Part shown: piece after piece, positions 18,614-21,853 of the stretch
Numbering within the stretch: position 1 is the first letter of the stretch
Layout: each line of letters opens with the position of its first letter
Source of the DNA: Thermoplasmatota archaeon
GTDB lineage: Archaea; Thermoplasmatota; Penumbrarchaeia; Penumbrarchaeales; Penumbrarchaeaceae
Reading direction: 5' to 3'
Assembly (NCBI GenBank): GCA_029762535.1
Contig: JARVGK010000013.1
Location: 40,984 to 76,137, forward strand
Length of the DNA: 35,154 nucleotides
Notes under the pieces: model-generated
Database searches by the model: none
Told to the model about the DNA's origin: nothing
The model's input: the letters and a program-made list of their open reading frames with translations, nothing else
Program-made: the position numbers and the translations under genes

Positions 18614-19627
18614 TCATACGCCCGGGACCAACGGCCCCTTGTACATGGCCCTGTTGAGAACGAAGAACCACAGGAACGGAAGCAGGATGGCGATGAGGAA
18701 TAACACAGGCCCGATGACCGTCCATAACGCGAGAACGCTCAGTGAGTAAGAGGATATCTCATGGACCGAGAAAAATCTCAATAGTCGAGTTCTGGGTATT
18801 TTGACCTTCCTCCTCAAGAAGGCCATCGATTGGGCGAATACCACTAAGGAAAGGGCTACGGTGAAAGGCATCAAATCGTAGTTGTCGCTCTCCCTTGCTG
18901 TCAGAAGAGCGAGGACCAGCAAACTGATGATGAACACAAAGCGCAGGGACATCCCCATGAGGATAAAGGAGTTGGTCAAGCTGTAGATCCCTCTCTTGCA
19001 TCTCACGCCCGAGACGACGGCGAAGTTACTCACCCCTGAGCGCCTGTCATCCTCCGCGTCCTTCATCCCTCCTTCTATCATGTTATTGAACAGGAGATGG
19101 ATCCCCGAGACCAGGGCGATAAGTGACACGATGGGCAGGTAAGAGGGGGGGATCCCTACCGCCGAAGCCCCGGAGAGGATTAGAAGGCCGAACCAGGCGC
19201 CCACGAACGCGTCAGAGAACGGGATGCGTTTTCCCAGCAGGTTGTATGCCGATCCCGCGATCGTGGAGAGGGTTAGAAGGGCCAGGGCGATCGCGATGTT
19301 CCCTGCCCCCATCAGTGTGGCCCCAGTCATGAGAACGAACGATAGGAACAGAGAAGATAGGGATACGGACCAGGCGAGCTTTGGCGAGATGCGGCCGGAG
19401 ACGAGGGGTTTGTGCGACAGGTATCCGGACCTGCTGTCGATATCCCTGTCGATTATCTCGTTAAGCGAGAAACCCCAGGCGTGATGCCCGAGAGCCGAGG
19501 AGAATACGAGAATGACCTGTATAACGTCGGCCCCGCAGACAACGGCCGCAAGGGTCGGCAAGAAAGCGGTGGCCGCACCCGTGTGCAACCTCGAAAGCCT
19601 CAGGATGTCCAGAAGTCTCCCCGCCAT
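18614..19627 (-). CDS. UbiA-family prenyltransferase
   Basis: Asp-rich motifs NEIIDRDID......KPLVSGRIS and MKDAEDDRRSG, with multiple TM helices. ATG 19627 is preferred over GTG 19660. Confidence 0.88.
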   Translation of the reverse strand: MAGRLLDILRLSRLHTGAATAFLPTLAAVVCGADVIQVILVFSSALGHHAWGFSLNEIIDRDIDSRSGYLSHKPLVSGRISPKLAWSVSLSSLFLSFVLMTGATLMGAGNIAIALALLTLSTIAGSAYNLLGKRIPFSDAFVGAWFGLLILSGASAVGIPPSYLPIVSLIALVSGIHLLFNNMIEGGMKDAEDDRRSGVSNFAVVSGVRCKRGIYSLTNSFILMGMSLRFVFIISLLVLALLTARESDNYDLMPFTVALSLVVFAQSMAFLRRKVKIPRTRLLRFFSVHEISSYSLSVLALWTVIGPVLFLIAILLPFLWFFVLNRAMYKGPLVPGV

Positions 19628-19674
19628 GGGCACACTAATGCACTCGGACGGATAAAACACGTTCGGACCCAGGC

Positions 19675-21018
19675 CTACATCTTCTGCCCGATGCGCCGGA
19701 TCATGAACCTTGCTTTGGAATTGTCGGGATCCTTCTTCAGGACCTCTTCGAAGAGGGACATCGCCTTCTTGAGATCGTCCTCTCCGTAGGCCTCCTTGGC
19801 CTTTTCCAGCAGATCCTCGACAGGGATGAGGGAGATGTCCGGCGACTCATCGGTCTTCTCCGCTCCCTTCTCCTCTTGCCCCGGTTCCAATGCCTCCTCT
19901 TCGACCATCACAGGGCCTCCCTCGGCATCGCCATCCTCAACCGTTTCGAGAGCAGGTGTCCCCTGCTGGACGCCCTCAACCTCCGGTTCAGGAACCTCGC
20001 GAGGTTCATCGATGGCCTGTTTGGCCACCTCGGGTTCCTCCTCGGCATCCTCCTCTACTTCAGATGCGATGTCCTCCGGGACCTCTTTCTCAGGCTCCGG
20101 CTCGGGTGCCATCTCCTGTACGGCCCTGGCCGCATCCTTCCTCTCCCGGTCGATCCTCTCGAGGACCTGAATATCATGCTCGATATCGGTCGCCATGTAA
20201 GTATATGGAAGCTTGATGCGGACCTTCTTGATGCTCTCCTTTAGGCCGGTGGGGTCGATCATGTCAAGCCTCTTTTTGAGCTGTTCTATACGACCCACCT
20301 CCTTTGAGAACCTCTCCAGTTCCTCAGTGGGATCCCCTTCCGAGTTCTGGATAAGCACCCTCAATCGATCGACGAAATAACCTTCCTGCTGCCATTTCAG
20401 TAGCTGTCTCTCGACCTCGTCCGCCTCTACCTCGCTCTCATCGCTGAACTCCGAACCGAGCTGGGCCAGGTCATCCATGAGAGAATCAACGTCCATGCCT
20501 TCCAGGTCGGCGACCTGAGGGGATCCTGATTCGTCTTGTCGTTCCTCATCGGAACCTTTGAGCACCTCGGATGCCGCCTTGAGGCCCTTGAGTATCCTGG
20601 AGCGGGGTGTGACCTTCTGGCCTTTACCGCCCTGGTCCGAAACGGCCCTCTCCTTGAGGATTTCGACCCTTCTCAGAACGTCGTCGGCCTTCTGGGTGTT
20701 CTTGATGTCCTTCATTATGCTATCGATCTCGGTGTTGTAACCGTATCCTTCAAGGGAGCGCAGGGCGGTCAGGGCAGAAGAGAGCTTCTTGACGTTGTCC
20801 CTGAACAGCTCTATGCCATTCTTCATGTCGAGCATTGAGCGCCCTTTCAGGGACCTTAGAGGCTCCACATCGAACTCCTGGGCCGAAAACCTATCGATAT
20901 TGATCTCAAGCTCTTTCTTGACGAGTTCCTCCTCGGAGCCTTCCCCGGTCTGGACGGGTATGCCGACGTTCTTCGGCAGCAGGTCCTTCATTCCTTTTCC
21001 GAGGGCCGGTTTAACCAT
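19675..21018 (-). CDS. Hypothetical ParA partner: ParB-like N-terminal peptide, two helical repeats, acidic linker and C-terminal TPR
   Basis: Begins MVKPALGKGMKDLL and overlaps the parA stop by 8 nt. The C-terminal AKEAY...DLKKAMSLFEEVLKKDPDNSKAR is a TPR motif. Confidence 0.8.
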   Translation of the reverse strand: MVKPALGKGMKDLLPKNVGIPVQTGEGSEEELVKKELEINIDRFSAQEFDVEPLRSLKGRSMLDMKNGIELFRDNVKKLSSALTALRSLEGYGYNTEIDSIMKDIKNTQKADDVLRRVEILKERAVSDQGGKGQKVTPRSRILKGLKAASEVLKGSDEERQDESGSPQVADLEGMDVDSLMDDLAQLGSEFSDESEVEADEVERQLLKWQQEGYFVDRLRVLIQNSEGDPTEELERFSKEVGRIEQLKKRLDMIDPTGLKESIKKVRIKLPYTYMATDIEHDIQVLERIDRERKDAARAVQEMAPEPEPEKEVPEDIASEVEEDAEEEPEVAKQAIDEPREVPEPEVEGVQQGTPALETVEDGDAEGGPVMVEEEALEPGQEEKGAEKTDESPDISLIPVEDLLEKAKEAYGEDDLKKAMSLFEEVLKKDPDNSKARFMIRRIGQKM

Positions 21019-21772
21019 GAGCTATCACTTCTCTACCAAGCTCCATGTAGGATTGCGCCCCGGACGATTCCGGGGAATACAATATGATCGGTTTTCCGAA
21101 GGAAGGTGCCTCACCGAGCTTGACGTTACGGGGTATTATCGTGTTGTAGACCTTGTCGCCGAAATAGTTCTTGACCTCGGAGACGACCTGTTTTGACAGG
21201 TTAGTCCGCCTGTCATACATCGTCATTAGTATACCTTCGATCGTGAGTTCGGGGTTGAGGTTCTTCTGGACGAGGAAGATAGTATCCAAAAGCTCCGACA
21301 TCCCCTCGAGAGCGTAGTATTCGCACTGCAGGGGGATCAGGACGGATTCCGCGGCGGTGAGGTTGTTGAGGGTGATGAGCCCCAGCGCCGGCGGGCAATC
21401 GATGAGTATGTAATCGTATTCATCGGAGATCTGGGCCAGGGCGTTCTTCAATATCCTCTCCCTGTCAGCGACGTTCACGAGTTCGACGGAGGCACCGGCC
21501 AAATTGATATTGGAGCCGATCAGGTCCATCTTCTCGAGCTCTGTATGAATGATCGCATCCCTGATATCGCATTGGCCTGTCAGGACCTCGTATATGGTGA
21601 ATTCCAGCTCGTTCTTGTCGAAACCGAGACCGGAGGTTGTGTTGCCCTGGGTGTCGGTATCGATAATAAGGACCCTTTTGCCAAGGAAGGACAGCGATGC
21701 TGAGAGGTTGATCGTGGTGGTGGTCTTGCCGACCCCGCCTTTCTGGTTCACTATAGTGATTATCTTTGCCAT
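21011..21772 (-). CDS. parA: ParA/Soj family ATPase
   Basis: Deviant Walker A NQKGGVGKTTT plus IDTDTQGN, LIDCPP, PLQCEYYALEG, TMYDRRTNL and IPRNVKLGEAPSFG. The start is moved to ATG 21772 because a TATA-like CTATATAT overlaps the listed start at 21826. Confidence 0.96.
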   Translation of the reverse strand: MAKIITIVNQKGGVGKTTTTINLSASLSFLGKRVLIIDTDTQGNTTSGLGFDKNELEFTIYEVLTGQCDIRDAIIHTELEKMDLIGSNINLAGASVELVNVADRERILKNALAQISDEYDYILIDCPPALGLITLNNLTAAESVLIPLQCEYYALEGMSELLDTIFLVQKNLNPELTIEGILMTMYDRRTNLSKQVVSEVKNYFGDKVYNTIIPRNVKLGEAPSFGKPIILYSPESSGAQSYMELGREVIAHG

Positions 21773-21853
21773 TCTTTTCCCCCGACTTTCTTTACGAGTG
21801 ACCTTAATGGTAGAAAAATACCCCATATATAGAGTTTGGGAGATTATTCTCCG

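Follow-up and report, generated by a model that had tools for sequence, protein, structure and literature searches.

Here, we report a two-gene operon in a 35,154-nucleotide (nt) stretch of an archaeal contig (Thermoplasmatota archaeon, JARVGK010000013.1; this whole stretch is called the window below), which encodes a Soj-type ParA ATPase and, directly behind it, a partner protein with a peptide of the ParB type at its N terminus; neither ParB nor parS was detected in the genome. Our observations point to an archaeal positioning system that lacks ParB and has not been described, and we consider it rather probable that the operon is part of a system in which nucleoid-bound ParA is worked by several peptide-bearing adaptors. 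How most archaea organize and partition the contents of their cells is an open question, on which this locus bears. In a 2025 survey, chromosomal ParABS was generally absent from archaea and archaeal chromosomal ParAB was treated as probable contamination (PMC12704722); our literature searches returned no description of a ParB-type peptide on tetratricopeptide repeat (TPR) or rod proteins, nor of a resident Soj-type ParA system in Thermoplasmatota. The genome that contains the window (2.96 Mb, 93% complete) belongs to a family of uncultured sediment archaea, f1, and was compared within a survey of 401 genomes of the phylum, which includes family f2 of the same order and family f9 of the same class.

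A bacterial-type Soj in an archaeal chromosome

Judged by its sequence, the ParA of the window is a Soj of bacterial type. The best solved relative is ParA of Myxococcus xanthus (PDB ID: 8RAY; 291 bits, ungapped over residues 2-250), the Soj proteins of Helicobacter pylori and Thermus thermophilus are the next-closest solved structures, and the identity to bacterial Soj is ~60-65%. The protein has the deviant Walker A motif KGGVGKTT at residues 11-18, Motif 2 (D38/D40/N44), and Walker B (D125), and its PF13614 match (Table 1) was judged against a cut-off of 27 bits. DNA-patch residues have been described for Soj of H. pylori (K199/K227/K230/K247) and of Bacillus subtilis (R189) (PMC6393308). 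The basic DNA patch is retained in the window protein as R189, K194, R215, and K218, the last of which corresponds to R238 in M. xanthus and K230 in H. pylori. A first-pass annotation, made from the letters alone, had described a Soj-type ParA whose stop codon overlaps the next start by 8 nt and whose basic DNA-binding positions appear kept, with one Lys in place of Arg, and our analysis agrees with it on each of these points. The ParA ATP dimer would most likely bind the nucleoid non-specifically.

In a large protein database, the relatives of this ParA are proteins of Thermoplasmatota metagenome-assembled genomes (MAGs) down to ~70% identity (the named ParA relatives are all from Thermoplasmatota or Thermoplasmatales MAGs), and bacterial ParAs from ~65% downward. 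A bacterial ParA that is 64% identical sits in a textbook gidA-gidB-noc-soj-spo0J locus; the Spo0J of the closest bacterial soj locus found begins MKKGLGKGLDALF. The Soj-type ParA is clearly a resident of the archaeal chromosome, with more than 20 genomes sharing its synteny with housekeeping genes: the gene order fructose-1,6-bisphosphatase, aldolase, triosephosphate isomerase (TIM), purF, parA, partner, and UbiA is kept on contigs that come from different samples and genomes. It is also the only strong Soj-type (AAA_31) ParA in the window genome.

A ParB-type peptide on the partner and the ParB-peptide pocket of ParA

The partner begins MVKPALGKGMKDLLPK. The ParA-ParB interface of M. xanthus has been mapped by mutation and nuclear magnetic resonance, with L11, R13, L15, L18, and I19 as the motif residues of ParB, a mutation-tested hydrophobic cleft on ParA (V116, L150, L152, L155, L187, and L192), and a site for the central Arg/Lys of the motif (Y81, E82, D110, and E117); the central position is a Lys in about half of chromosomal ParBs (PMC12462528). 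The partner residues L6-G7-K8-G9-M10-x-x-L13-L14 are in register with L11/R13/L15/L18/I19 of M. xanthus ParB. The pocket residues were transferred through the ungapped 8RAY alignment (M. xanthus number = window number + 20). All six cleft residues are identical in the window ParA (V96, L130, L132, L135, L167, and L172), as are three of the four at the Arg/Lys site (Y61, E62, N90, and E97), i.e., 9 of 10 over the whole pocket. The pocket is largely conserved in 18 archaeal ParAs of the clade, with E97 and L132 invariant.

The peptide lies in residues 1-25, which are disordered and the sole basic part of the partner (isoelectric point (pI) 10). It is nearly invariant in 26 partner homologues, as the block M-(G/V)-K-P-A-L-G-K-G-M-K-D-L-L; across 23 sequences, L6, G7, G9, and L13 do not vary and K8 hardly does. 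The core is LGKGM in the window, LGRGL in the orthologues of f2, and LGKGL in those of f9. A phmmer search with residues 1-24 gave no match, the query being too short. We also predicted the complex of two ParA, two ATP, and partner residues 1-40; the ipSAE interface scores were 0.01 and 0.03 and the fold of the peptide itself was uncertain, and this prediction is used neither for nor against docking.

Anatomy of the partner, and the absence of ParB and parS

The AlphaFold2 model of the partner, built on the alignment of the 26-sequence family, is all-helical and has no beta strand. Its confident blocks are residues 29-130, 200-303, and 400-447, and its disordered stretches are residues 1-25, 158-171, and 307-394. 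The first two blocks correspond to two copies, R1 and R2, of an unnamed five-helix module that is specific to the lineage. The whole protein is strongly acidic (net charge -43, pI 4.5), and the linker between the second helical module and the tail varies in length among homologues. The best-conserved blocks are the N-terminal peptide, SLEGYGY in the first helical module (R1), and DP(D/E)(N/S)SKA(R/K)F in the tail, which is the most conserved of all.

The tail (residues 400-447, three helices) is a TPR unit of ~1.5 repeats. Scans of Pfam and NCBIfam gave only sub-threshold TPR matches over residues 403-439 (TPR_19, 19.9 bits against a cut-off of 25); the family profile matched the consensus TPR with E 3.5e-18, and the tail superposes on MamA in the VIA structure search with Z 9.3 and a root-mean-square deviation of 1.0 Å over 51 residues. 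Fold searches with the whole partner (Foldseek against the PDB, VIA wide, and ESM atlas) returned TPR matches for the tail and nothing else, and a search of the ESM Atlas by features returned only unnamed Thermoplasmatota clusters with scores <0.9. The second module (R2) folded alone into five helices with a predicted local distance difference test score (pLDDT) of 92. No structural match to it rose above helical-bundle noise (in VIA, best Z 6.9 for Embp and 6.1 for EzrA; in Foldseek, none at E ≤ 0.001), and the module profile found nothing significant among PDB sequences; because a best Z this low does not clear that noise, we name no fold for R2. R1 and R2 are only weakly alike in pairwise BLASTP (E 0.069), and their kinship rests on a shared pattern and on profile matches to the rod proteins described below.

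No ParB_N (PF02195), helix-turn-helix (HTH) ParB, or NCBIfam ParB match was found in the partner even at E ≤ 1. No SegB or ribbon-helix-helix (RHH) feature was seen in the Pfam/NCBIfam scans, the AlphaFold2 model, or the fold searches, a cryptic HTH or RHH being beyond the reach of the last. ParB_N is also absent from the entire window genome, and the parS sequence TGTTNCACGTGAAACA does not occur in it with up to two mismatches. The same ParB_N search is positive in 70 of the 401 genomes surveyed and negative in all 23 genomes of f1, both of f2, the one of f9, and both of a further family, f12. The first-pass annotation had thus described the partner well, i.e., a ParB-like peptide followed by helical repeats, an acidic linker, and a TPR, with no ParB CTPase motif, no HTH, and no parS; a divergent ParB or SegB fold, which it had named as one of the findings that would speak against it, is not seen, and the model has no strand at all.

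As a side observation, three genomes of family f3, which is in the same class (G071, G142, and G170), show the reverse of f1: a 326-331-amino acid (aa) ParB_N protein (E ~1e-27) and no Soj-type ParA at E ≤ 1e-40. For more distant ParAs (L043 and L046), neither a ParB nor a partner-like gene was recognized among the genes downstream.

Gene pairing and ParA-module fusions across the phylum

ParA was found at E ≤ 1e-40 in 19 of 23 f1 genomes and also in f2 and f9, and the partner profile has at least a partial match in 23/23 f1 genomes. In each of the 17 loci that are complete for both genes (f1, f2, and f9), the partner lies directly behind parA with an overlap (8 nt in 15 loci of f1 and f9; 14 nt in two f2 loci) and starts with the peptide (LALGRGLKELLP or LALGKGLKELLP in f2, with the core LGRGLKELL; RALGKGLKELG in f9, with the core LGKGLKELG). 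The pairing also holds on 5/5 metagenome contigs. Conservation of the peptide and of the pairing, on which the first-pass annotation had staked its proposal, is therefore what the 17 loci, the five contigs, and the 26 homologues show. The 8-nt overlap suggests translational coupling.

Every named one of the 26 partner homologues is from Thermoplasmatota. The full-length partner was found only in f1, with shorter forms in f2 and f9. R1 is present in 26/26, short forms included, and four short homologues have no R2; because of these four, the minimal architecture is peptide, R1, acidic linker, and TPR tail.

In f12 and in another family, f22, a ParA with 55-58% identity to that of the window is fused through a Pro/Glu-rich linker to two to three copies of the helical module of the partner. 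The frames of these natural fusions are 633, 682, and >764 aa long (L042 in G015, L044 in G003, and L045 in G026, respectively). They support the view that ParA and the module are directly linked in function. In these three genomes, the DNA pattern for the peptide matched at background level, and eight candidates that were inspected were discarded as spurious.

Further proteins with the peptide and with the module

We scanned the window genome (2.4 million six-frame residues) for LG[KR]G[LMIV]xx[LIVM][LIVMF]. There were seven matches, of which only three are 10 residues or less from a start Met, namely those in the linked partner and in two proteins that we call TPR-A and TPR-B. By chance, 0.12 motifs would be expected in the first 24 residues among the 5120 six-frame open reading frames (ORFs) of the genome; together with the near invariance of the peptide in the 26 homologues, this makes the peptide more than a chance resemblance. 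TPR-A (G000:C33:26466-27668 (+) = L056:4967-6172:+; 401 aa) begins MESKLGRGLGALIS; behind the peptide come a coiled coil, then a disordered stretch, and then a TPR array. TPR-B (G000:C91:78613-79878 (-) = L057:5014-6279:-; 422 aa) begins MAEKNNKALGRGISALF and consists of the peptide, an acidic middle, and a TPR array. Both arrays are bona fide (TPR_11, 1.7e-16, and TPR_1, 1.4e-25, respectively), and neither gene adjoins a ParA gene. Orthologues occur in 20 of 23 (TPR-A) and 23 of 23 (TPR-B) genomes of f1, where they retain the peptide, e.g., MTKPLGRGLGALLTD and MAKKRPSTALGRGLGALIKDK, and both families are present in f2 (L097 and L099). A single-sequence search with the N-terminal region of TPR-B found it in f1 only, plus four close relatives in the large database; this search is too insensitive to judge co-occurrence with ParA.

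In two relatives, genes like that of TPR-B are linked to parA. On a metagenome contig (L090:2352-6073) whose ParA is 69% identical to that of the window, the gene for an 810-aa MRRKSLGKGLRALIP...TPR protein has its start 8 nt ahead of the parA stop, and a 107-aa ORF beginning MEKKQVGKGIKALIP lies just upstream of parA. Genome G162 has a second parA copy (L095, G162:C59:45900-50200), behind which come a 240-aa MAKKAMGRGLKALIR protein and, after it, a 767-aa MVKPKRKSLGKGLGALIR...TPR protein. Some parA loci (L095 and L090) hold two peptide-bearing genes. The 810-aa and 767-aa proteins have single TPR units that, by eye, resemble the tail of the partner; if so, the three peptide families may be relatives built on one plan, i.e., peptide, spacer, and TPR. 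Because the lineage has at least three peptide-bearing families that end in TPRs, the linked partner among them, we read the design as one with several adaptors and not as a single pair.

The family profile of the partner also matches many large proteins of the phylum with tandem copies of the helical module, two of them encoded in the window genome. One (P0028, G000:C36 = L018:2988-5573:-) is an 861-aa rod protein of about seven modules, followed by a TPR-like unit as in the tail of the partner (BLASTP E 2e-5) and by a DnaJ-like CxxCxGxG zinc-finger tail; it has no Pfam family matches. Another (P0029, G000:C14 = L019:2577-6317:-; 1246 aa) starts with about eight modules and continues with an ATPase domain of the Bac_DnaA family (PF00308, E 2.2e-34) and with zinc ribbons, and we tie it to the ParA partner because the helical module is common to both.

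A working model and its alternatives

In the model that we favor, ParA-ATP dimers would coat the nucleoid. The N-terminal peptide of an adaptor (A-L-G-K-G-M-K-D-L-L in the linked partner) would form a short helix within the hydrophobic cleft located at the ParA dimer's edge, as that of ParB does, with K8 placed on the Tyr/Glu site of the opposite subunit. The docked peptide together with DNA would trigger ATP hydrolysis and release of ParA, and the load of the adaptor would be moved or spaced over the nucleoid by the resulting ParA gradient, i.e., by the usual diffusion-ratchet. One ParA probably serves several adaptors, including TPR-A and TPR-B. A protein cargo or scaffold, which the adaptor would hold or itself make up, is the most likely load; DNA is less likely because the partner is very acidic and shows no DNA-binding feature. 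Full activation of ParA in M. xanthus needs two juxtaposed peptides (PMC12462528), and for this reason the partner probably oligomerizes, perhaps through its half-complete TPR tail or through the rod modules. The nucleoid-binding ParA with a cargo adaptor, a design apart from ParABS and SegAB, that the first-pass annotation had proposed is supported in this way; it now extends to at least three adaptor families, and the retained pocket and the fusions strengthen it.

Several observations weigh against this reading. The window ParA is acidic (pI 4.7), and nucleoid binding is for that reason not certain. The fourth position of the DNA patch is E235; it is a Thr in the T. thermophilus and Caulobacter proteins and is variable in bacteria too. 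At the Arg/Lys site, D110 of M. xanthus is replaced by an Asn (N90), and the published motif (L|F|I)G[KR]G(L|F|I) allows only L, F, or I at a position that is Met in the window peptide. Docking of the peptide on this ParA is deduced from sequence comparison. The ParA-module fusion proteins have no peptide, and with the pattern used no LG[KR]GLxAL peptide was found in their genomes (G003, G015, and G026); the link through the module and the link through the peptide may therefore be alternatives. Finally, the neighbors of the operon are housekeeping genes (purF, TIM, aldolase, and UbiA).

As for the origin of such a system, a bacterial soj may have been taken up, ParB lost or never kept, and the docking peptide moved onto at least three of the host's own TPR-ended proteins, with one nucleoid-bound ParA positioning several protein structures; we offer this scenario tentatively and hold it to be possible but somewhat doubtful. 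Under it, ParA could be connected to a cytoskeleton-like scaffold of the archaeon, and perhaps also to control of the cell cycle, because one adaptor shares its module with giant rod proteins, one of which has a DnaA core.

The operon could instead segregate a chromosome or replicon, the partner being a functional analogue of ParB that marks a centromere indirectly, through a separate DNA-binding protein or a replisome/origin complex held by its TPR or modules, and ParA separating the sisters. The ParA is of the chromosomal Soj type with its nearest bacterial kin in soj-spo0J loci, the operon is single-copy, vertically inherited, and in a housekeeping neighborhood, and the known archaeal ParA systems SegAB and HpaAB do segregate DNA; ParB not being detected, something else would have to replace it. 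However, the partner has a net charge of -43 and no detected DNA-binding domain, the genome has no parS, and no iterons, inverted repeats, or centromere-like repeats were found by the parA operon. The Orc1/Cdc6 genes are on contigs other than that of the operon. Three different peptide-bearing proteins also suit the positioning of multiple cargos better than one centromere, and we consider segregation unlikely.

Alternatively, the acidic TPR-ended proteins may serve ParA as landmarks or sinks, by recruiting it, sequestering it, or switching it off, in the way of HubP/FimV, PopZ, or TipN or of Spo0J acting on Soj, and the output would then be the control of another process, for which the DnaA-core rod protein P0029 is one candidate. 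HubP/FimV-type hubs recruit ParA-family ATPases, and B. subtilis Soj acts on domain III of DnaA. A long acidic region that ends in a short C-terminal TPR-like unit recalls HubP/FimV (PMC12918733); this likeness is one of architecture only. The module that the partner has in common with the 861-aa rod protein, which ends in the same TPR tail, and with the 1246-aa protein with its Bac_DnaA domain would also fit a hub. Against it, the link to DnaA rests on this shared repeat module alone, and in the known ParA/MinD systems a peptide that activates the ATPase is the mark of a cargo-side partner; HubP itself is not known to carry a ParB-type N-terminal peptide. No membrane anchor or polar-targeting feature was seen in the partner, though none was searched for, and the general Pfam/NCBIfam scans showed no LysM, transmembrane, or FimV C-terminal family, with no search aimed at these. 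A hub or regulator of this kind seems to us quite unlikely.

It is very improbable that the two genes are merely co-operonic and that something unrelated to ParA, such as stability, contact with a membrane, or another partner, keeps the peptide conserved. The motif has just nine residues, and its docking on ParA is a prediction that the complex model neither backs nor opposes, but the register is exact, the peptide sits at a disordered N terminus as that of ParB does, three proteins carry it against the small chance expectation given above, and the ParA pocket is conserved. Independent genomic linkage is also seen for the linked partner and for the TPR-B-like proteins, which make up two of the three peptide families, besides the fusions of ParA with the module.

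Comparison with known systems

In the favored multi-adaptor model, the closest comparison is with bacterial ParABS (Soj/Spo0J; PMC12462528 and PMC6393308). The two are alike in ParA (~60% identity, the Walker motifs, the pocket for the ParB peptide, and the DNA patch), and the window partner likewise has the LG(K/R)G motif at a disordered N terminus and is encoded directly downstream of parA. In contrast to ParB, it has no detectable CTPase fold, HTH, or dimerization domain, and there is no parS; it is strongly acidic and has a new helical module and a TPR unit, the peptide is found on at least three proteins, and the host is an archaeon.

With McdAB, PomXYZ, and ParC/PpfA-TlpT (PMC11407121 and PMC10241942), the proposed system shares a nucleoid ParA and a partner that links a protein cargo through an ATPase-stimulating N terminus, and several cargos per cell are possible in such orphan ParA/MinD systems too. 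The McdAB, PomXYZ, and ParC adaptors have basic N-terminal peptides of their own and dedicated ParA paralogues, whereas the window combines the canonical ParB motif with a canonical Soj; its ParA seems to be common to several adaptors, and the fold of the adaptor is related to none of theirs.

SegAB, pNOB8 AspA-ParB-ParA, and Haloferax HpaAB (PMC8682754 and PMC13722703) are likewise archaeal operons of parA and a partner with overlapping genes, and the N terminus of those partners is thought to contact the ATPase, as we propose for the window partner. SegB and HpaB are small site-specific DNA binders (HpaB being an RHH protein), whereas the window partner is large and acidic with no detected DNA-binding fold; SegA and HpaA are divergent ParAs (HpaA is MipZ-like), whereas the window ParA is Soj-like.

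If the peptide works here as it does in bacteria, the LG(K/R)G peptide would be a portable module that rewires ParA to new cargos. The operon would then offer a tractable archaeal positioning system with several adaptors and a first functional handle on the unnamed rod-repeat proteins of Thermoplasmatota.

Layout of the locus

The features of the operon are collected in Table 1. Upstream of parA, the TATATAT box and the GGGGG run, which is 7 nt before the parA ATG at 21772, are likely its promoter and leader. A longer parA ORF of 271 aa (start 21826) is unlikely to be used, because every orthologue begins MA(K/R)IIT (253-255 residues) and the TATA-like box overlaps the upstream ATG.

Table 1. 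Coordinates of the parA operon and its features in the window
Feature	Position	Strand	Description
parA	21011..21772	(-)	253-aa Soj-type ParA ATPase; PF13614 match E 1.4e-70
Partner gene	19675..21018	(-)	447 aa; ParB-type peptide, two helical modules, acidic linker, TPR-like tail
Overlap of parA stop and partner start	21011..21018	(-)	8 nt, ATGGTTAA, read directly from the sequence
Candidate ParA-binding and ATPase-activating motif	20977..21003	(-)	Partner codons 6-14, L-G-K-G-M-K-D-L-L
Helical module R1	20623..20937	(-)	Residues 28-132; pLDDT >90; invariant SLEGYGY block
Helical module R2	20104..20433	(-)	Residues 196-305; motif W-x-x-E-G-Y-F-V-D-R-L
Acidic Pro/Glu-rich disordered linker	19834..20103	(-)	Residues 306-395; pLDDT 32-39; net charge -30
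C-terminal three-helix TPR-like unit	19678..19833	(-)	Residues 396-447; motif DP(D/E)(N/S)SKA(R/K)F
Likely parA promoter and leader	21779..21831	(-)	TATATAT 21825-21831; GGGGG 21779-21783; read by eye

Behind the partner lies a gene for a UbiA-family prenyltransferase (window 18614-19660, (-)), after a gap of ~14-50 nt in the window and on 5/5 contigs of relatives. It may be part of the same transcript as the parA operon; a functional link to the operon is not evident. One relative carries an inserted DUF7557/ParE-toxin pair close downstream of the parA operon, where it separates UbiA from NadA (L004:4604-5079 and L005:4490-4965).

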